The notes beneath the pieces were generated by a model. It was not told the origin of the DNA. It made no database searches and saw nothing but the letters and a program-made list of their open reading frames with translations. From NCBI GenBank assembly GCA_943332855.1, contig CALQRA010000001.1, forward strand, positions 3,276 to 67,275: a stretch of DNA of 64,000 bases, written 5' to 3'. The DNA comes from Candidatus Kuenenia stuttgartensis (lineage in GTDB: Bacteria; Planctomycetota; Planctomycetia; Pirellulales; UBA1268). Position numbers and translations under genes: made by a program. Positions 2,599-37,424 of the stretch are shown piece by piece (the first letter of the stretch is position 1; each line of letters opens with the position of its first letter).

Positions 2599-3885
2599 TC
2601 AGTCGATCTCGAGCCGGAGCGTGCCGTCGTCGTCGGCGATGACCTTCAGAAGCGGCGGCCGGTTTGGCTCGGGGTGGGCGCTGCTACCGCCGCTGGAGAG
2701 ATCGCTGCTGTCGACGACCTCGCCACCGGCGCGGGTGAGAAACTTCCGCAGCGTCTCGGTGTCGACCGTATCGGCGATGATGTGGACCGAGCCGTCGGCG
2801 AAAGCGAAGAGACCGACCCTGCCTTGACCGACCGGATGGATCGCACCGATCCCCGCCGGCTTCCCGATCCCGGGGAAGGCGTCGTCGAGGACGATGTCTT
2901 CCGGCTTCGTCCAGGGGATTTTCCGAGCGGGATCGACCGTGGCGAACAGGATCGTTCTCGAAAGCCCGTCGGTGATGCTCGCGAAGCCGACTTTCTTCGC
3001 GGTCTTCAGGCAGGCAGGGAAGTCATCGGCCGATGTCATCGTCACCGCGCCGGGCTGAAAGATCGCCGCCTCCCCGGTGATCGCCGCGTAGTCGGTGAGG
3101 GTATCGAGGGGGCCTTCGCGGGCCGGATCGCGGAACACCGCGGGCATCTTTTCGGCGACCGCCAAGTTCTTCGGCGAGTCCCATGGCTGGGAGAAGTCGT
3201 ACTGCTTGTACAACGCCATCTCATCGAGGAAAGGTAGGAGGAGGACGCGCCACGAGTGCCACGGCTTGCCGTCGGGTCCGATCACGGCCGCCGGCGGGAA
3301 ACAGCCGTAGGTGTCGTGGAAGTTGTGGAAGCCGAGAGCGAGTTGCTTGAGGTGGTTGCTCGATGCGGTGCGGCGGGCCGCAGCACGGGCCTTGGCAATC
3401 GGATTGAACGAGCCGAGGCCGTTGGCGAGCGGCTTGGCCTTGGCGACAAGGAGATCGGGGAGACTGCGGATCGCTTTCGTGGTGGCGGTGTCGACGGGCC
3501 GCTCACCGACCAGCCCCGTGAACGGTCGGCCGAGGACGGCGGGGCCTTCTTGAACGGCCGGGAGCGCACCGGGGCCAAACGTCGCCACGGCGACATTCCC
3601 TTCGAGAATCTCTGCGACCTTGACTCGGACAAGCGTGTCGAGAGGGCCTCCCTTCTTCGAAGCGACAACAAGCACGGCCTGCCCCTCGGCGGGGATCGAC
3701 AACATCGCCCCTTCGGCACGCTCGATCCGGACCTGGCGCGTCGTCGCGTCGACGGCGACGATCCGGTGCGTCGGCTCGGGGCTGAAGAGCGGATAGCTCA
3801 TGACGACGCGCTCTTCCGCGCTCGCCACGGCCACGAGCGCCAGAAAAAACAACAGTCCGTGAGCGACGGCGAGCGTCGAACGCAT
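2599..3885 (-). CDS. DUF1559 domain protein with Sec-type signal peptide and extra N-terminal domain (no prepilin N-terminus)
   Basis: ORF trimmed to ATG 3885, giving signal peptide MRSTLAVAHGLLFFLALVAVASA. The C-terminal ~260 aa has DUF1559 hallmarks (SSNHLKQLALGFHNFHDTYGCFPPA; WRVLLLPFLD; FADGSVH). Confidence 0.7.
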   Translation of the reverse strand: MRSTLAVAHGLLFFLALVAVASAEERVVMSYPLFSPEPTHRIVAVDATTRQVRIERAEGAMLSIPAEGQAVLVVASKKGGPLDTLVRVKVAEILEGNVAVATFGPGALPAVQEGPAVLGRPFTGLVGERPVDTATTKAIRSLPDLLVAKAKPLANGLGSFNPIAKARAAARRTASSNHLKQLALGFHNFHDTYGCFPPAAVIGPDGKPWHSWRVLLLPFLDEMALYKQYDFSQPWDSPKNLAVAEKMPAVFRDPAREGPLDTLTDYAAITGEAAIFQPGAVTMTSADDFPACLKTAKKVGFASITDGLSRTILFATVDPARKIPWTKPEDIVLDDAFPGIGKPAGIGAIHPVGQGRVGLFAFADGSVHIIADTVDTETLRKFLTRAGGEVVDSSDLSSGGSSAHPEPNRPPLLKVIADDDGTLRLEID

Positions 3886-4007
3886 GACAAATCCCCCGGT
3901 GGCCGAGTGTGCAACCCCGATCGCAGTCTGCCACAACCTCTCTCCTCCGCCAACGGCCGTGACGGGGGCGACACGACGTTGTCCGGAAAGGCTCGCGTCA
4001 ACCGGCG

Positions 4008-7000
4008 TCACTTCTCCCACACAAAGATCTCCGACACGCCGCTGCGCGAGGCCCCCCGGTGGGTGAAGACAACGCGCACCTTCGCCGCCGTCACCGGCTT
4101 GAACGTTCCTTCGTTGACCCCGTTGCCGAGCGGCTGCTCGGGCGTGTGGACTTCGTCGTCGACGGGCTTCCAGGCCCCGTCCGCGAGGACCTCGACGTGA
4201 AACTGCTCGGGCGACTGGACGCCGCCCCGGTCGTCGTAGAGGGCCAGCTCGATCCGGGAGAAGGTCCGCGGGGCACCAAAATCGACCGCCAGCCAGTCGG
4301 TGGCGTTTGGGGATTCGTAGGCCGTCCAGCGGTTGTTGGGGTTTGTCTGATAGGAGACGATCCCGTCGATCGCCCGCTCGACCCGGTCATAGCGTGAGGT
4401 GTGCGAAGCGGTCGCCTTGGGGAAGTCGGGGGCGCCCGCGCCGCCGGCATTGAAGGCGAGGTTGCCGGCCGGCGCGGGGGCAGGCTCGAGCGGCAGAAGC
4501 GCTTCTCCCCATAGTTCGACTTCCGATAGCCCGACGCGCATCCCGGGGCGGGGTGTGAGCTCGATCCGCAGTTTTTGGAGGTTGCGCGGGGCGAAGTGGA
4601 TGTGGTTTGCCATGTGCCCCTCGGGATCCTGCGGCAGTTGCCTCGTGATCGGCAGCGGCTCCCAGTCGGTGCCGTTCCAGGTTTCAACAGCGATGGTCTT
4701 CGGCGCGCGAACGTCGGAGGGGAGGGTGTCGCGGCCCGGCACGGCGGCGTCGGCGGTGCCAGCGAGAATCCCGGGCTCGTCGTCGAGGAGGAAAAGCGCG
4801 AGCGTGTCGCCCCGGCGCGGAACCCCGAGATCGAGGACGAGCGATTCCGGCGCGCCGGCCGTGGCGCTCTCCCAGCGGTTTGGTGGCGACCGCAGATACC
4901 AAGCGACGCCGTCGGCGAGCGCTGCGGGGGACGTACCGGGGCGGATCGAGGTGGGAACGATGCGGGGGAAATAGGTGCCGTCGTTGTTGACCGCGACGTT
5001 GACCCGCGTCGGCACGATTCCCGGCTTCAGTCCCTCGTCAACAAGCCCCGCCGTGACCAGCGCCGCAGAGACCGGCGGGAGCGGCGCCGTCAGCCGCCCC
5101 ACCGTCGGCGATGACGCAATCACACGGCCATCGGCGAGGAGATGGAGACCGGGGCCGAGGCCGTAGCGCGAGCCGTCGCGATCCCACACCACCCCCACCT
5201 CACGCCCTCGGTAGATCAGCCGGTCGAGCCGCAGGTAATCCCATTCCGGGGGAAACAGCGGGCGGATTTCGAGCGTGTCGTCGGCACGGGGAATGAGGCC
5301 GACAAGCCCTGTGATCACGAGGTCGGCGTAGCCGGAATGGAAGTAGTGCTCGCTGTGATTGAAGGCATCGTGCCCTTCGAAGCTGCCGGTGTCGGGATGG
5401 CAGGCTTCGGCAAGGTACGGCCGCCCGGCCTTCCGGTGGGTGCGGGCATAGGTGTTGAGGAGCGCGACGTAGTCCTTGGCCGAGACCACCTCCTGGAGCC
5501 CCGGGCCGTTGTTGTCGAAGCCAGGAGAGCGGTACTGAAGAACGTTGGCGAGGGCCTTGAGCGTCTGGGTCGTGGCGTAGGGCCAGCTCTGGCCGCTCCA
5601 CCAGCAGCAGTGGGGCTGGAGGATGAAGAGCGGATCGTGCCGCTCGACGGTCGCGGGGCCGAAGGGCGCCTGGAAGAACTCCGGGTCGCCGAGGTATTTC
5701 CAGGCCTCTTCAAAACCCTTGCCGCGCGACGGCATGTCGAACTGCCAGGGGACGTAGCCGATCAGCTCGCGGCCATGCGGGCTGCCGGCGAAGCGGCCCG
5801 AATCGTAGATCCGGCTCCCGGCCGCGACAGAGGCGCCGTCGAGCGTTTCATCATCGCGGAAGGCGGCGAGGAAGAAACCGCGGCGCTCGTCCCACAAGCT
5901 CTCTTCCATCTTTTCCCGTAGCGCCTCCGCGGCGGCCCGGTGTTCAGCGGCCTTGGCGGGCTCCCCGAGGAGATCCTCCATCCGCGAAAGCGCCACGAGA
6001 TCGGCCCACTGGTAGGCGATGAAGCTTGGCCGATAGCTCGGCGCGCCGCGCAGAATGTCGGTCGTCTGGCGGCTGGCAATATTGAACTCCATCCCGTCGT
6101 CGTGTCCCACCTGCCAGTACAGCCCGGTCGACTCGACGAAGTGCCTGTCGCGCCAGGCTTGCGTGTTCGCTTCGAGGCCGGGAAGGATGTCGCCGGGGAA
6201 GACGGTCGTGACCGTGGCGGCGGGGTGGCCGGCAGCGCCGAGATGGAGGCGGGCGGGATGGACAAGATGGACGCCCCACACCGCGTCGGCGAGCCAGGTG
6301 GAATAGTTGCGCGGCTGGGCGCCGGGGGTGTTGACCCAGTATCGAGCGTAATCGCGGGCGACTCGTGGCGAGCGGAGCCAGCGGGCCTCGGCGAGCTGAT
6401 GGCCCGCGGGGCAGGAGATGGCCCCGTACGCGCCCGACCAAAACGGCCGGTCGAGAAACTCGGTGAACAGATAGCCGCTGTTCGGCGAGCCGTAGGTGAG
6501 ATGTTTGGTGAGGAGTTCCCAGCGGTACCACCAGGTCGTCACGATGTCGGCGTCGGGGCAGTCGAAGAGCGGAACGTTTTCCAGATACCACGCCTGATCG
6601 CATCGATCCCAGAACGTCTCCCGCTCCATGAGGATCGCCTGGGATCGCTCGGCCTTCTCGCTCCACTGGCTGGCGGGCTCGGCCTGGGCCCGGAGGGGAA
6701 GCGTGACCGTGATCATGACCACCAGCGCACCGATCCATGCCGGGATCGGGCCGATCGCCAGGGCTGCCCCCGGCGGCGGGCCGGCTTCGCTTGTCGCCGC
6801 GGCGGTGCCGCGCGGGGGGAGGTGATCATCGTCGGCAAGCGGCGCCGGGCCGCGGCCGCTGGAACGGACATCGGGAAGGAGGATCGCGCCGAGCGGCTGG
6901 AGGAGGCCGGCGACGAGGAACGTCGTCGGGGCGTCCAACCAATCACTCACCGGCCCGGCCAACTTAGAGCCCCAAACCGTGGCGAGGTTCATCAGCGCCA

Positions 7001-32733: not shown

Positions 32734-33420
32734 CTAGCGTGAGAGCGGATTGGTCGCGCGCCACCGGCTCAGGCGGCTGTGGTGATAGCCCTTGACGAGA
32801 TCGGCCGACTGCTTGTCGTAGTCGCCGGTGCGAACGTCGATCAACTCCATCGTCAGCCGGTAGGAGCGTTCGTAGTCTTTGTTCTCGCGCGTTGTGCCCG
32901 AGGTGAGCGTGGCATAGAGGAGGTAATCGATCGGCTCCCCTTCGCGCTCGAGGTGCGCGGCGAACTGCCGCATGTGTTCCGGGATACAGAGCTGGTCCGG
33001 CCGCAGCCGGGTCTCGAGGAGACCGGCGTCGACGACGCGCCGATTGAGCGGCTGGAAGACAGGGGTCTGGAGAAGCCGGGTGTCGATCACCTGGTAAAGC
33101 TCATCCTTGAAATCGCCGATGTCCTCGGCGCTCTTGTTCTCGACGCCAACGAAGCAGATCCGCTTTGGCGGGCAGGGGATCGGCTCGCCGGCGTCGTCGT
33201 ACGACACCTGCTGCACCGGCGCCTCGGCATTCCGGGCGAGGAGCTTGGCAACCGCCTCGTCGACAAGCGGCCCAAACGTCTCGGCGCCCGCCTGATGGCT
33301 CCCCATCAGCGCCTTGTCGCCAGGGTTGACGATCCTCGCAAACTGCCGCTGCCCGCGGCAGCCGGCCAGCGCGAGGATCGCAGGGGCGCCAGCATGGACG
33401 AGGAACGCGCGACGCAGCAT
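32734..33420 (-). CDS. LpoB-like (COG3417-type) lipoprotein
   Basis: ORF trimmed to ATG 33420, giving the lipobox MLRRAFLVHAGAPAILALAGC. The core ICFVGVENKSAEDIGDFKDELYQVIDTRLL...IDYLLYATLTSG...LTMELIDVRTGDY follows the LpoB-fold pattern. The longer ORF runs into a palindrome. Confidence 0.45.
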   Translation of the reverse strand: MLRRAFLVHAGAPAILALAGCRGQRQFARIVNPGDKALMGSHQAGAETFGPLVDEAVAKLLARNAEAPVQQVSYDDAGEPIPCPPKRICFVGVENKSAEDIGDFKDELYQVIDTRLLQTPVFQPLNRRVVDAGLLETRLRPDQLCIPEHMRQFAAHLEREGEPIDYLLYATLTSGTTRENKDYERSYRLTMELIDVRTGDYDKQSADLVKGYHHSRLSRWRATNPLSR

Positions 33421-33505
33421 GGCACGGCTCCGACGGAGGAGAGAGTCGACCGGGCAGCCCTCGGCGGGGGGCGACGGTAGCGGGGAGAGCCCGGCGGCGG
33501 AAGGG

Positions 33506-33574
33506 GAAAAGGTGCCAGCCACCAAATCTGGGTAGGTTGTAGGCTTCTCCAATTTTGGTGGCTGGCACCTTTTC
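33506..33574. repeat. perfect 21-bp inverted repeat (27-nt spacer) in a divergent intergenic region
   Basis: GAAAAGGTGCCAGCCACCAAA at 33506-33526 and its exact reverse complement at 33554-33574, checked base by base. Confidence 0.9.
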
Positions 33575-33603
33575 TTCCCCGAGAAGCCTTAAACTGCCAG
33601 TTA

Positions 33604-33878
33604 TGGAGACCATGCCCCCGGCGACCGACCCGACAAACGACACCGCCGCCGAGGCGGAGGCCGTCCAGCTGGAATGCATTCGGCGGATGTCGCCGCTGGA
33701 GCGCCTCCGGGCAGCCTGTCGGTTGTCAGACCGCGGCCGCCGCCTTGCCTTCGACGCGATCCGTGCCCGGCATCCGGAAGCTGACGAGACGGAAGTCCGC
33801 CTTCGTTTCATCGAGCTCGCCTACGGTGCTGATCTCGCCGCCGACGTGCGGCGCTGGCTGCGGGATCGGGGGCGATGA
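33604..33878 (+). CDS. small helical protein, putative antitoxin-like partner of the downstream nucleotidyltransferase
   Basis: ORF 33555..33878 trimmed to ATG 33604 because the upstream codons lie in the palindrome. Its stop overlaps the next ATG (ATGA at 33875). It shares E-x2-RRM(S/T)-x2-ER(L/I) with the small ORF at 54235. Confidence 0.5.
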
Positions 33879-34459
33879 GCGACACCGCCGACCTTCTCGC
33901 CGCCCTGACGCCGGTCGCGGCGGTGCTCGAGCGACTCGGCGTGCGGCATTATGTCGGTGGGAGCGTGGCGAGCTCCGTCCACGGGGCGATCCGATCGACG
34001 ATGGACGTCGATCTCGTCTGTGAGCTTCGATCTGACCAGATCGAGCCCTTTCTCGCGGCGTTTGGCGTCGACTTCTACGTCAGCCGGCAAGCGGTTCAGC
34101 AGGCCGTCGAGCGGAAGTCGTGCTTCAACCTCATCCACCTTCCCACGGCGTACAAGGTGGACGTGTTCGTCAGCCGGGGCCGACCCTTCGATCTCGCCGC
34201 GATGACGCGGGCCGTTCCCCGGGCACTTGGTGGAGAGGAATCGTTGCTCGTACCGGTGGCCACCGCCGAGGACTCGATTGTCGCCAAGCTCGAGTGGTTT
34301 CGGCTCGGCGACGAGTCGTCGCAGCGGCAATGGGACGACGTCACGAGGCTCATGTCCCTCCGCGGTGAAACGCTCGATGTCGCTCACATGCATCGAATGG
34401 CAGAGTCGGTCGGCGTCTCGGATCTTCTCGCCCGGCTGCTTGGGTTGCGTGGCAGTTGA
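33875..34459 (+). CDS. minimal nucleotidyltransferase-fold protein (AbiEii/MNT-like, family uncertain)
   Basis: VGGSVASSVHGAIRSTMDVDLV matches the G-[SG]...D-x-D NTase signature. The helical C-terminus reads EDSIVAKLEWFRLG. Translationally coupled to the upstream small ORF. Confidence 0.55.
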   Translation: MSDTADLLAALTPVAAVLERLGVRHYVGGSVASSVHGAIRSTMDVDLVCELRSDQIEPFLAAFGVDFYVSRQAVQQAVERKSCFNLIHLPTAYKVDVFVSRGRPFDLAAMTRAVPRALGGEESLLVPVATAEDSIVAKLEWFRLGDESSQRQWDDVTRLMSLRGETLDVAHMHRMAESVGVSDLLARLLGLRGS

Positions 34460-34477
34460 TCCCTCATGTGAGGATCG

Positions 34478-34501
34478 AAGGTGCCAGTTACCAAATCTGG
34501 G
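34478..34501. repeat. 24-nt direct-repeat copy (22/24) of 33509-33532
   Basis: AAGGTGCCAGTTACCAAATCTGGG here versus AAGGTGCCAGCCACCAAATCTGGG at 33509-33532. Together they bracket the two-gene NTase module. Confidence 0.8.
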
Positions 34502-34757
34502 CCAAGGATTCAAACGGCCATGCGATCCCCTCCGGGATCCACCTCCGGCCGTTCCAGGAGGGGAGCTGGTATCACCACTTCTGCTTCCACGCCCACCGCT
34601 GGGTGAAGTGAGCGGAGGGAATGGATGACTGGCACGGGATCTGCGTAGCGTTTCTGCATCGGTCAGGGGGAAAGGGGATCGTGGCCCGGGGTGTGCGGAC
34701 GATTCCGCACGTGCGTCTGGCTTGATCCCGCGCTGCTGACCAAACCTGGAGACGCTC

Positions 34758-37424
34758 ATGGACATCGCTGAGAGCTTCGGCCGACTGTTCGATTCTGCAC
34801 CGGTGGGTGGTGCAAAACGCCCCGCGCGACTCGGGCGCCGGCGGCGGGCGGTCTGTCGGGGGGAAGCTTGGCAGGGGGGCGAGCGGCTCGAAGCGCGGGC
34901 GATGTTCGCCGCCGCGCCGATGCAGGTGGGGATGAATGTCGAGAATGTCGTCGACTGGTCGCCCGCCTGGACCTTCACCGACGCCTTTCAAAGCTCGCGG
35001 CCGTGGATCGCTCAGGCGGTCGATGTGGCGAGTAACGCGGGCCGCTGGGATGTCGGTGACACCCATCCGCTCCCGGTGAATGCCAAGGGGGAGATCACCC
35101 GCTTCGAGACCTGGACGGAAAACGGCCGGCAGTTCCGCCACCAGGCTGCCACGCTCCTCTTTCGCGACGTCGGCAGCTACGCCAGCGGCACCTACCACGC
35201 CCAGTGGGAGGGGAAGGGCACGGTGAGCTTCGGCTTCGACGCCCGCGTCCTCTCGACAACCAACGGCCCCGATGGGATCCACCGCGCGGAGCTCGCTGTC
35301 ACGCCGACGAGCGCCGGAATCCTCGTCCGCATCGAGTCAACCGATCCGGCCGATCCGGTCCGTGGGATCCATGTGTGGATGCCCGATTGGAAGGGGAAGA
35401 GCTTTGCAGGAGAGGTGTGGAAGCCAGGGGCGCCGTTCTCGCCGTTTCATCCGCTCTTCCTCGAGCGCCTCGATCCCTTCTCGACGATCCGTTTCATGGC
35501 CTGGCAGGAGACCAATAGCTCTGACGTCCGCACCGTTGCCGACGCCCGCCCCGCCGATGCTGCCCGTCAGAGCTCCGGCCCTGGCGGCTCGGCGAGCGAG
35601 CCGAAGGTCAACGGCGTCTCGATCGAGCAGATGGTGCAATTGGCCAACGACCTCGACGCCGATCCGTGGTTCAACATGCCGCCGCGGGCCGACGATGCGT
35701 ATGTTCGCGCTTTCGCCCAGACCGTCCGCGACCGGCTCGAGCCGGGGCGGAAGGTGTATGTCGAATGGTCAAATGAGATCTGGAACTACGGCTGGGGGTT
35801 TGACGGGGCGCGGGTCGTCGACGAAGTCGCCGGGCGTCCCGAATACTCGGGCCTCGACCACTGGCAGATCGCCGGCCGTGAGGCGAAGCGCGATCTCGAC
35901 ATCTGGAGCAGCGTCTTCGCCGGGCAGACGTCGCGGCTGGTCCGCGTCGCCGCCGGCCAGGCGGCCAACGAATGGATCGTCAACCGGGTCGCGTCGGCGA
36001 TGGGGGGCTCGTTCGACGTCCTCGCCATCGCCCCCTACATCCTCCCCACCGACGAGCAGCGCGCGGCCTACACCGCCGCGACGACCGTCGACACGATCCT
36101 CGCCGACTGCCGCACCGCCGTCGACACGGCGATCGACTGGACGCGACGCCACAAGGTCCTTGCCGACACCTGGTCGGCGACGCTCGGCCGCCCCGTCGGG
36201 CTGGTGGCCTACGAGGGGGGCATCCATCTCGACAGCCGTGGCAGCCCGGCCCAGCAGGCCTTCTACGATGCCACGAACGACCGGCGGATGGGAGACATCT
36301 ACCGGCAGTATCTCGCGGGCCTGGCTGCCGCGGGGATGAGCCTCTACGTCGATTTCCAATTCACCGGCCAGTCTGGCGCTTCCCCCTGGGGGGATTTCGC
36401 CAAGCTCCACGCGATGGATGAGCCGGTGGCTTTCGCGTGGCGCTATGCTGCGGTCGTGGCGGCGGCCGATAACGCGCTCGTTCGGGCGGCGCCGCGCCCC
36501 CCAATCGACTTCAACGGCGACGGCGTCGGCGATGTCGTGTGGCGCGATGCGAAGACCGGGGCCTGCGTCGCCTGGCTCCTCGATGCCGGCGGGGCGACGA
36601 AGGGAACGCGCGCCCTCGGCGGCGGCGGGGGGGTGAACACGCTCGCCACGATCGGTGACTTCGACGGCGACGGCGTTTCCGATCTCGTCTGGCGCAACAA
36701 GACGAGCGGCGTGAGCATCCTCAAGCTCCTCCGGGCCGATGGCACGGCGAAGGGGACGGCTTCCCTCGGCGGGAGCGCGGCCTGGCAGATCGAGACGTCG
36801 GACGATTTCGATGGCGACGGTCGCGACGATCTCGTCTGGCGCCACGGCCGCAGCGGTTCGACCGTGATCTGGCTCATGAACGGCGGCCGCGCCGTGGCCA
36901 GCGCAGCGATCGGCGGTGACTCCGTCTGGCGGCTCGTTTCGACCTCGGGGCGGTATGACGCCGACGGCGACGGCCGGGCCGATCTCCTCTGGCGGAATGC
37001 CTCGAGCGGCGTCACGGTCCTGTGGCTCATGAACGGCCTCACGAAGCGCTCCGCGACGGCGCTCGGCGGCGATGCCCGCTTTGAGGTGGTGGCCAGCGGC
37101 GACTTCAATCGCGACGGCCGAGGGGATCTGGTGTGGCGCGACCGGATCAGCGGGACGGCGGCGGTCTGGCTCATGAACGGAGCGACGGCGCTGTCGAGCC
37201 GGGCCCTTCTGCCGGCGGGCCTGTCGTCTCCCACGACGTCTTGGTCGATCGTCGCCACGCTCTCAGCCGGAAGCAACGGCCGCCCGGGGATCGTCGTCCG
37301 CGAGACGACCAGCGGCCGGACCATGGTGTGGTGGATGGACGGGGTGGCGATCGACGCCGCGGCGCCCCTCGGCGGCGATGGACGGGTTGCGCTCCTCCGC
37401 CGCCCCGGCCGGCTCATCGGCTGA
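34758..37424 (+). CDS. clan GH-A-like TIM-barrel glycoside hydrolase-like domain fused to >=5 FG-GAP/VCBS repeats
   Basis: VYVEWSNEIWNY and LVAYEGGIH resemble the two catalytic-Glu strands of GH-A enzymes. The C-terminal repeats read DFDGDGVSDLVWRN..., DFDGDGRDDLVWRH..., DADGDGRADLLWRN..., DFNRDGRGDLVWRD.... The N-terminus is Arg-rich followed by ERLEARAMFAA. Confidence 0.6.
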   Translation: MDIAESFGRLFDSAPVGGAKRPARLGRRRRAVCRGEAWQGGERLEARAMFAAAPMQVGMNVENVVDWSPAWTFTDAFQSSRPWIAQAVDVASNAGRWDVGDTHPLPVNAKGEITRFETWTENGRQFRHQAATLLFRDVGSYASGTYHAQWEGKGTVSFGFDARVLSTTNGPDGIHRAELAVTPTSAGILVRIESTDPADPVRGIHVWMPDWKGKSFAGEVWKPGAPFSPFHPLFLERLDPFSTIRFMAWQETNSSDVRTVADARPADAARQSSGPGGSASEPKVNGVSIEQMVQLANDLDADPWFNMPPRADDAYVRAFAQTVRDRLEPGRKVYVEWSNEIWNYGWGFDGARVVDEVAGRPEYSGLDHWQIAGREAKRDLDIWSSVFAGQTSRLVRVAAGQAANEWIVNRVASAMGGSFDVLAIAPYILPTDEQRAAYTAATTVDTILADCRTAVDTAIDWTRRHKVLADTWSATLGRPVGLVAYEGGIHLDSRGSPAQQAFYDATNDRRMGDIYRQYLAGLAAAGMSLYVDFQFTGQSGASPWGDFAKLHAMDEPVAFAWRYAAVVAAADNALVRAAPRPPIDFNGDGVGDVVWRDAKTGACVAWLLDAGGATKGTRALGGGGGVNTLATIGDFDGDGVSDLVWRNKTSGVSILKLLRADGTAKGTASLGGSAAWQIETSDDFDGDGRDDLVWRHGRSGSTVIWLMNGGRAVASAAIGGDSVWRLVSTSGRYDADGDGRADLLWRNASSGVTVLWLMNGLTKRSATALGGDARFEVVASGDFNRDGRGDLVWRDRISGTAAVWLMNGATALSSRALLPAGLSSPTTSWSIVATLSAGSNGRPGIVVRETTSGRTMVWWMDGVAIDAAAPLGGDGRVALLRRPGRLIG

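Follow-up and report, generated by a model that had tools for sequence, protein, structure and literature searches.

The stretch of DNA analyzed here, referred to as the window, comprises 64,000 nt of Candidatus Kuenenia stuttgartensis (contig CALQRA010000001.1, assembly GCA_943332855.1); all coordinates without a prefix are window positions, and loci from other genomes are given by L numbers. Between 33506 and 34501 lie two overlapping genes encoding a small helical protein and a nucleotidyltransferase (NTase), which together are predicted to form a toxin-antitoxin module, and copies of a short repeat stand on both sides of the pair. The features around which the analysis is built are the following.

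33506..33574, 69 bp: complete hairpin doublet (REPIN-like), with arms at 33506-33531 and 33549-33574 and a 17-nt loop.
33506-33526 and 33554-33574: perfect 21-bp inverted repeat with a 27-nt spacer.
33603..33878, plus strand: predicted antitoxin gene for an all-helical, Rv0078B/MenA1-like protein of 91 aa, with its ATG at 33603 and its stop codon at 33876-33878.
33875..34459, plus strand: predicted toxin gene for a MenT1-like minimal NTase of 194 aa, assigned by fold, motifs and weak family matches.
34478..34501, plus strand: repeat singlet that coincides exactly with a deletion junction; a second hairpin element has apparently survived only as this left arm.

The two flanking 24-mers, AAGGTGCCAGCCACCAAATCTGGG at 33509-33532 and AAGGTGCCAGTTACCAAATCTGGG at 34478-34501, are identical at 22 of 24 positions and differ only by CC/TT. 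A third copy with 3 mismatches, on the minus strand at 33548-33571, is the right arm of the palindrome. The 64 kb were scanned with up to 3 mismatches allowed and hold no further copy, and 100 shuffles used as the control gave none at all, so that the repeat greatly exceeds chance in this window. When two mismatches are tolerated the palindrome arms extend to 26 nt (92% identity), and the folding energy of the doublet as single-stranded DNA is -30.7 kcal/mol (z = -8.8 relative to shuffled sequences). The left 24-mer is separated from the ATG by 70 nt, and the right one from the stop codon of the NTase gene by 18 nt. Rfam searches of 33300-34800 gave sub-threshold microRNA-hairpin look-alikes on the palindrome only, and no known RNA family. 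An earlier note on this DNA had described the locus correctly in nearly all respects: the 24-mers flank the module, the perfect palindrome with its 27-nt spacer is there, the 91-aa and 194-aa proteins are encoded with an ATGA overlap of 4 nt and a GGS...DVDL motif, and no recombinase is present in the window; only the distance from the end of the palindrome to the ATG, given there as 30 nt, is in fact 28 nt.

The NTase carries the motifs G28-G29-S30 and D44-V45-D46-L47. Its homologues (1333 at E <= 1e-3) are nearly all unnamed proteins from Planctomycetota metagenome-assembled genomes (MAGs) and lake metagenomes, they occur in many genomic contexts, and among them G28, G29, S30, T42, D44, D46, D96, K138 and D155 are invariant. 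An AlphaFold2 model was obtained with a predicted local distance difference test (pLDDT) score of 92, and the top five Foldseek matches to it are all MenT1/MenAT1 chains with full-length coverage (8an5_A, E = 4.1e-8, TMq 0.70), followed by ANT(2'')-Ia (E = 2.7e-5), a fungal NTase-like protein and MenT3/TglT; LnuA is among the matches as well. The single NTase sequence matched nothing in the PDB; the best match of the family profile was again MenT1 (8an4_A), at E = 0.2 only, with GG...R-x-T-x-D-V-D in register and T42, D44 and D46 aligned to T39, D41 and D43 of MenT1. The invariant T42 thus stands two residues before the first catalytic Asp, as T39 stands before D41 in MenT1. K138 and D155 lie at nearly the positions of MenT1 K137 and D152; since the C-terminal half has no sequence alignment to MenT1, and there is no residue-level alignment for these two, their equivalence rests on position and fold. 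The Pfam family AbiEii (PF08843, cutoff 22.5 bits) was matched at E = 1.6e-3 and 18.9 bits, which does not reach the cutoff, and precomputed PF08843 matches exist for a few of the NTase homologues. PADLOC gave no match for the NTase.

The product of the upstream gene, which would be 88 aa long if an alternative start at 33612 were used, matches the Pfam family Rv0078B (PF18993) at E = 3.1e-4 and 21.1 bits, below the cutoff of 27.1 bits; a PF18993 match at E <= 0.01 was found for 16 of 28 small-protein homologues. Its AlphaFold2 model (pLDDT 87) consists of five helices, for which Foldseek returned nothing at E < 4 and no helix-turn-helix (HTH), ribbon-helix-helix (RHH) or other DNA-binding fold. 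Sequence and profile searches of the PDB with the small protein yielded nothing relevant, neither sequence nor fold matched MenA1, and the only PADLOC match was at E = 0.007 to an unrelated 1060-position model. The pairing itself is conserved: in every context fetched, a small gene (88-95 aa) stands upstream of the NTase gene and shares 4 nt with it. In six loci checked this small gene could be aligned as a homologue, and for L007, L136, L137 and L140 the alignment was made with the small gene of the window. In L132 (485-775) and L135 (2098-2370) the NTase gene is cut after 5 codons (ATGAGCGACACCGCCG joined to GGCAAG...) and followed by a DUF4261 gene; the small gene is intact in both, which fits the NTase as the toxic partner. 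Two distant homologues (~65% identity), P0102 (279 aa) and P0111 (278 aa), appear to be natural antitoxin-NTase fusions and could be either real single-chain toxin-antitoxin proteins or frameshift or annotation artefacts. In the lineage of L140, two more tandem 194-aa genes (374-958 and 988-1572) stand just 5' of the antitoxin-NTase pair.

On the basis of the fold, the motifs, the weak family matches of both partners and the conserved pairing, the two genes are assigned, by sequence and structure prediction, to a distant MenAT1-like toxin-antitoxin module. The closest characterized system is MenAT1 (Rv0078B-Rv0078A) of Mycobacterium tuberculosis, which shares with the window pair a minimal DUF1814-type NTase of ~195 aa with GG...T-x-D-x-D and the best structural match to the NTase, as well as a small helical antitoxin encoded upstream, related through the weak Rv0078B match, in which no DNA-binding domain is detected. 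The two systems differ in that identity over the structural alignment is only ~19-24%, that the window antitoxin has 91 aa compared with 68 aa, and that the host is a planctomycete. The type IV system AbiE has a toxin of the same NTase superfamily, to which the weak PF08843 match points, but the window toxin falls ~100 aa short of the 238-position AbiEii model, PADLOC gave nothing credible for either protein, and since the partner is not an AbiEi protein (winged HTH, COG5340) the pair is not AbiE. The type VII system MNT-HEPN (MntA/HepT) is likewise a two-gene module with a small NTase; there, however, it is the NTase that acts as antitoxin, against a HEPN RNase. Neither window protein matches a HEPN family, the neighbors being a lipoprotein gene and an NlpC/P60 remnant, and the lack of a HEPN partner rules this assignment out. 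The earlier note had suggested a toxin-antitoxin or Abi-like cassette with an AbiEii/MNT-type NTase; a toxin-antitoxin-like module of the AbiEii/DUF1814 superfamily is retained, and its placement with AbiE or MNT-HEPN is replaced by one nearest to MenT1/MenA1. Of the profile and structure searches that it had recommended for both proteins, those with the NTase led to the MenT1 fold, whereas those with the small protein stopped at a sub-cutoff PF18993 match with no fold match.

MenT1 extends the acceptor ends of tRNAs, and MenA1, a protein of 68 aa with no DNA-binding domain, binds asymmetrically across two toxins (PMC10435456, PMC11375011). MenA1 induces auto-phosphorylation of MenT1 at T39 (PMC11375011), and the MenAT1 operon shows no transcriptional autoregulation (PMC10435456, PMC11375011). 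By analogy, the window NTase would be toxic by adding nucleotides to the 3' acceptor ends of tRNAs, which would block aminoacylation. The small protein would neutralize the NTase post-translationally, lying across its active-site face, and would promote auto-phosphorylation of the conserved Thr (T42).

The repeats have a distribution of their own. One genome per species (GTDB representatives) was scanned for exact matches to the 18-nt core AAGGTGCCAGYYACCAAA, which was found in at least 118 stretches, nearly all of them from Planctomycetota MAGs. About 9 of these are chance matches in coding regions of unrelated bacteria (AGTCACC variant) and a few more lie on contigs labelled as non-planctomycete bins; the remainder come from Pirellulales, Planctomycetia, Isosphaerales or 'Kuenenia'-labelled MAGs, many of which are from lakes, judged by isolate names (Baikal, LacPavin). 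Among the matches listed, single MAGs give up to 6 core-bearing contigs each, 74 copies are inverted doublets and 71 are singlets, and the module is present in 2 of the 118 stretches. The gap between the 18-mer cores of a doublet is mostly in the 20s or 40s of nt and reaches ~80. The arm consensus aAAAAGGTGCCAGCCACCAAATcTGGGnAA, derived from 155 instances in other genomes, agrees with the doublet arm in the window; in this consensus a conserved A-run precedes the arm on its 5' side and becomes the T-run at the 3' end of a doublet. A single consensus arm folds no better than shuffles (z = 0.17). The repeat core was not found in the searchable literature. In L054 (434), L113 (151) and L040 (505-585) repeat singlets have common flanks (...GAGCGATCCG, arm, ...CTCCCGNCCNCCGAATCTACCCTGAA...) and probably represent one orthologous locus of related MAGs, where L040 has two tandem arms.

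In four genomes (L103, L063, L039 and L019) the repeat lies directly beside a gene for a 232-239-aa protein resembling the transposases associated with repetitive extragenic palindromic (REP) sequences, the REP-associated tyrosine transposases (RAYTs); the four genes are 70-75% identical to one another. Inverted copies stand on both sides of this gene within tens of nt in L103, and likewise, by coordinates, in L063, and at least one copy is directly adjacent to it in L019 and L039. The protein matches Pfam Y1_Tnp above the cutoff (E = 1.8e-12) and the NCBIfam model REP_Tyr_transpos at 63.6 bits, under the cutoff of 80 bits. It is presumably this RAYT-like Y1 transposase that spreads the repeat. 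In L019 (2342-4577), where repeat arms occur on both sides, the RAYT-like gene adjoins a PIN-like gene (identified by eye, 3506-3901), and another small NTase with GGLAVS...RMTVDVDLVV is encoded on the minus strand at 3927-4577; genes of toxin-antitoxin type thus seem to cluster with the repeats.

The 24-mers of the window are therefore, on sequence evidence, arms of a dispersed inverted-repeat family of freshwater Planctomycetota that is associated with a RAYT-like transposase. The REPIN/RAYT system of Pseudomonas fluorescens and E. coli (Bertels & Rainey 2011, PMC3116915) is alike in having two inverted units with a short spacer that form a hairpin, many dispersed copies, decayed singlets, and units that flank a Y1 HUH transposase gene. 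It differs in that the unit here is ~30 nt long, is not itself palindromic and has no GTAG/CGTC tag, in that the loop here is variable (~20-80 nt between cores) and the NCBIfam RAYT score remains below cutoff, and in that an identical 18-mer is found here across many species-level MAGs. TIRtrons and their TIRYT genes (Di Nocera et al. 2013, PMC3733652) are alike in that a RAYT-like gene lies between non-REP terminal inverted repeats (TIRs), and in that these TIRs are scattered singly, as dimers or in groups; the planctomycete R. baltica has many tyrosine-transposase genes with flanking repeats (PMC3733652). Here, however, a toxin-antitoxin pair stands between arms, and the window repeat sequence does not occur in the text of PMC3733652. 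Since the arm is not self-complementary and lacks the GTAG/CGTC tag, the family is nearer to the TIRs of TIRtron/TIRYT or to REPIN doublets than to classical REPs.

The neighborhood was compared in relatives whose NTases are 92-99% identical to that of the window and in one outgroup (L136) at 82%. Two further features of the window are needed for this comparison.

34503..34611, plus strand: pseudogene remnant, the 3' end (~35 codons with the stop) of an NlpC/P60 gene whose intact form (327-336 aa) is present in relatives; it abuts the singlet.
34619..34635, minus strand: probable decayed repeat arm GAATGGATGACTGGCAC, 3' of the NlpC/P60 stop and 76% complementary to the singlet, which is weak evidence when taken alone.

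At least six arrangements of the neighborhood were found among the close relatives, and most block junctions fall at a repeat copy; those of the window and its nearest variants do.

V1 (window, L146, L147): lipoprotein gene (minus), doublet, antitoxin-toxin, singlet (plus), last ~35 codons of NlpC/P60, FG-GAP gene.
V2 (L143, L144, L148-L153): like V1, with the downstream arm inverted and no NlpC/P60 remnant.
V3 (L131): lipoprotein gene (minus), one doublet, intact NlpC/P60, FG-GAP; the toxin-antitoxin pair is absent.
V4 (L098): doublet, NlpC/P60, FG-GAP, doublet, antitoxin-toxin, inverted arm, 38-bp copy of the FG-GAP 3' end, next gene.
V5 (L132, L135, L116): one copy in which the toxin is truncated, DUF4261, NlpC/P60, and a complete second copy with a decayed arm.
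V6 (L136, outgroup): lipoprotein gene (minus), antitoxin-toxin, singlet (plus), DUF4261, doublet, NlpC/P60, FG-GAP; no upstream doublet.

In a blastn comparison with L098, the window matches the gene-pair block up to 34461 and the NlpC/P60-FG-GAP block from 34503 onward, so the singlet is the block junction. The remnant is read in an open reading frame (ORF) at 34456-34611 whose C-terminus is KDSNGHAIPSGIHLRPF...HRWVK; it was compared with the intact gene of L098 (497-1507), the product of which matches Pfam NLPC_P60 at E = 2e-6. The window singlet, GTT...GGGC, corresponds to the left arm of the only doublet of L131 (CGTT...GGGC), L146 has GTC at the same junction, and the TT variant is absent from the 118 other loci among the matches listed. 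The spot of the probable decayed arm (34619..34635) is the left junction of the block in L116 and L132 and its right junction in L143 and L148. A doublet with the loop TAGGTTG(C/T)AGGCTTCTCC and a leader of ~30 nt accompany the gene pair at three positions in the relatives. The upstream doublet of L146 (3390-3452, compared with 33506-33574 of the window) is inverted and has a partly different loop in an otherwise similar locus, which suggests that the hairpin element was flipped or replaced in place.

We propose that the ancestral order was doublet, antitoxin-toxin, doublet, NlpC/P60. In the lineage of the window, a deletion running from the loop of the second doublet into NlpC/P60 would have removed ~90% of that gene, and the downstream 24-mer would be the left arm of the second doublet, the remainder of which was deleted. 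Recombination between direct arms would account for the loss of the toxin-antitoxin pair in L131, and duplication with further repeat-adjacent deletions for the remaining variants. Several paths of deletion, duplication and recombination fit the order of rearrangements. Under this reading no operator or att function is assigned to the repeats, which would have served at this locus as fragile or recombination-prone sites.

It is very probable that two unrelated things adjoin at this locus, namely a MenA1/MenT1-type toxin-antitoxin operon and dispersed repeats that act as recombination-prone or fragile sites. Several observations weigh against this interpretation. The sequence-level matches to MenT1, AbiEii and Rv0078B are all under curated thresholds, and a profile of the C-terminal half of the NTase found nothing relevant in the PDB and could not be aligned with the MenT1 sequence. 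One arm by itself shows neither self-complementarity nor a GTAG/CGTC tag, so the repeat is not a classical REP, and the RAYT gene is absent from the 64-kb window, which holds three repeat copies. Random scatter would not be expected to place two of these three copies at a single 1-kb module; co-inheritance of the block with a resident element would explain it. The doublet also overlaps the expected -35 region and may have some regulatory effect on the operon.

Both components belong to known kinds, and the finding, though real, is an ordinary one; that repeats mediate the reshuffling of a toxin-antitoxin block would be a modest side result. To our knowledge, the MenAT1 type has so far been characterized only in mycobacteria; the present assignment would extend such systems to a large and well-conserved planctomycete clade, and the more than 1000 toxin homologues provide a deep alignment for the minimal MenT1 fold and its small antitoxin. 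The analysis also documents a RAYT-like-associated hairpin-repeat family that is common to many freshwater Planctomycetota MAGs and, in six structural variants, a clean natural case of repeats at the breakpoints of deletion, duplication and relocation around a gene block. For genome scanning, it follows that short repeats bracketing a module should be tested for genome-wide dispersal before they are called att sites or operators.

The first alternative, which is compatible with the explanation preferred above, is that the hairpin is kept because its A-run, long stem and T-run serve as an intrinsic terminator in both directions, or as an insulator, and so protect the operon from read-through. 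The conserved A-run 5' of the arm and the T-run at the 3' end of the doublet are what such a function would use, and at two positions in the relatives (b and c) the stop codon of the upstream gene is followed by the doublet within ~25-45 nt. In the window, however, the genes on its two sides are divergent and need no terminator, the doublet was not among the sites called by the terminator scan (its loop is too long for the tool), and singlets cannot terminate. We regard this function as unlikely, though it deserves to be kept in mind.

A second alternative takes the arm-bounded block, that is the doublet, the MenAT1-like pair and the terminal arm, as a non-autonomous cargo REPIN or TIRtron moved in trans by a RAYT-like transposase, with the toxin-antitoxin pair standing in for the transposase gene. 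The outer arms are inverted in L098 and in the V2 relatives, like the arms around the RAYT gene of L103, and the left end of the block is identical at its three positions. In L098 the block occupies a site that is repeat-free in the window, and the 3' end of the FG-GAP gene is repeated on its two sides as an imperfect direct duplication of 38 bp (4286-4323 and 5342-5379). This could be a target duplication; a tandem duplication followed by a repeat-adjacent deletion would explain it equally well, the 38 bp then being what remains of a second FG-GAP gene copy, comparable to the NlpC/P60 remnant of the window. Y1 transposases (IS200/IS605 family) are not known to make target duplications, which counts against transposition of the block. 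L134 has the same left junction with a different right side, and all positions fall within one neighborhood of ~6 kb, as would be expected of local recombination. Transposition as a unit is therefore judged doubtful, less likely still than a role in termination. If it did occur, RAYT-type systems, which are usually seen to move only hairpins of ~100 bp, would relocate an addiction module, and the module could stabilize the new location of the repeat.

The NTase might also be something other than a toxin, either a small-molecule-modifying enzyme like the resistance NTases ANT(2'') and Lnu or an antitoxin of the MNT type. Foldseek does match ANT(2'')-Ia and LnuA, but the MenT1 matches are stronger and full-length, the partner matches the Rv0078B antitoxin family and no HEPN partner is present. 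The variants in which the NTase was lost and the small gene kept, together with the invariant Thr before the first catalytic Asp as in MenT1, argue in the same direction, and we consider a non-toxin role very unlikely.

The earlier note had read the palindrome as an autoregulatory operator, a function in which it would be bound by the antitoxin or the complex with the downstream copy as an auxiliary site. Its position, ending 28 nt 5' of the ATG and overlapping the expected -35 region, would suit an operator, and the AbiEi and MenA3 antitoxins bind inverted repeats according to references cited in PMC10435456. The same sequence, however, occurs in at least 116 stretches that do not contain the module and is absent from homologous modules, so the repeats are not cassette-specific: the modules of L007, L136, L137, L139 and L140 (antitoxin identity 64-82%, NTase identity 78-84%) have no repeat copy upstream, and L007, L137, L139 and L140 lack the motif altogether. 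The antitoxin model has no HTH or RHH match, MenA1 has no DNA-binding domain and MenAT1 no transcriptional autoregulation (PMC10435456, PMC11375011), and L131 has kept the doublet without the module. A dedicated operator is thus highly improbable. A consensus scan for promoters and terminators found no promoter and one irrelevant terminator-like site; one promoter element is nevertheless a candidate.

33590..33595, plus strand: possible -10 element TAAACT, 7 nt 5' of the ATG.

TAAACT aligns with TACAAT of L136, which has no upstream hairpin repeat, at an equal distance from the ATG, and it would imply a possible leaderless mRNA for the operon. In L136 a perfect 14-bp palindrome, GGCCAAGCTTGGCC (2184-2197), overlaps the promoter-like TTGGCC-18-TACAAT immediately 5' of the antitoxin ATG and is a candidate native operator or promoter; there too the ATG follows the -10 by 7 nt, suggesting a leaderless mRNA. 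Two other ideas about the upstream region were dropped: a sigma-54 promoter (TGGCAC-N-TTGC at the arm end), for which the spacing is inconsistent and the T-run varies among copies, and a decayed arm upstream in L136, where identity is only ~56% in GC-rich DNA.

We give almost no credence to the remaining proposal, also made in the earlier note, that the direct 24-mers on both sides of the module are att-like duplications left by a site-specific recombinase that inserted the cassette: the single-element site of L131 is an empty site of the kind that the earlier note had proposed to look for in related genomes, but the repeats are a genome-wide family, no integrase is nearby, and the downstream copy is inverted in the V2 and V4 relatives. 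In the outgroup L136, moreover, the module is present at this locus with a downstream singlet and no upstream doublet, which makes secondary loss a likelier origin of the empty site than a state before insertion. The earlier note had named a dispersed REP-like element unrelated to the module boundaries as an outcome that would refute its reading; the dispersal is indeed what was found, although the copies are not unrelated to the boundaries, since they lie at the breakpoints. An integron attC site was likewise dropped, there being no integrase or core sites and the repeats being dispersed.

Downstream of the module, a 236-aa ORF on the minus strand (34572-35282) overlaps the start of the FG-GAP gene on the opposite strand. 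It is called as a gene in some assemblies (L001, L004) and not in others, has no family match on record, and is probably spurious.

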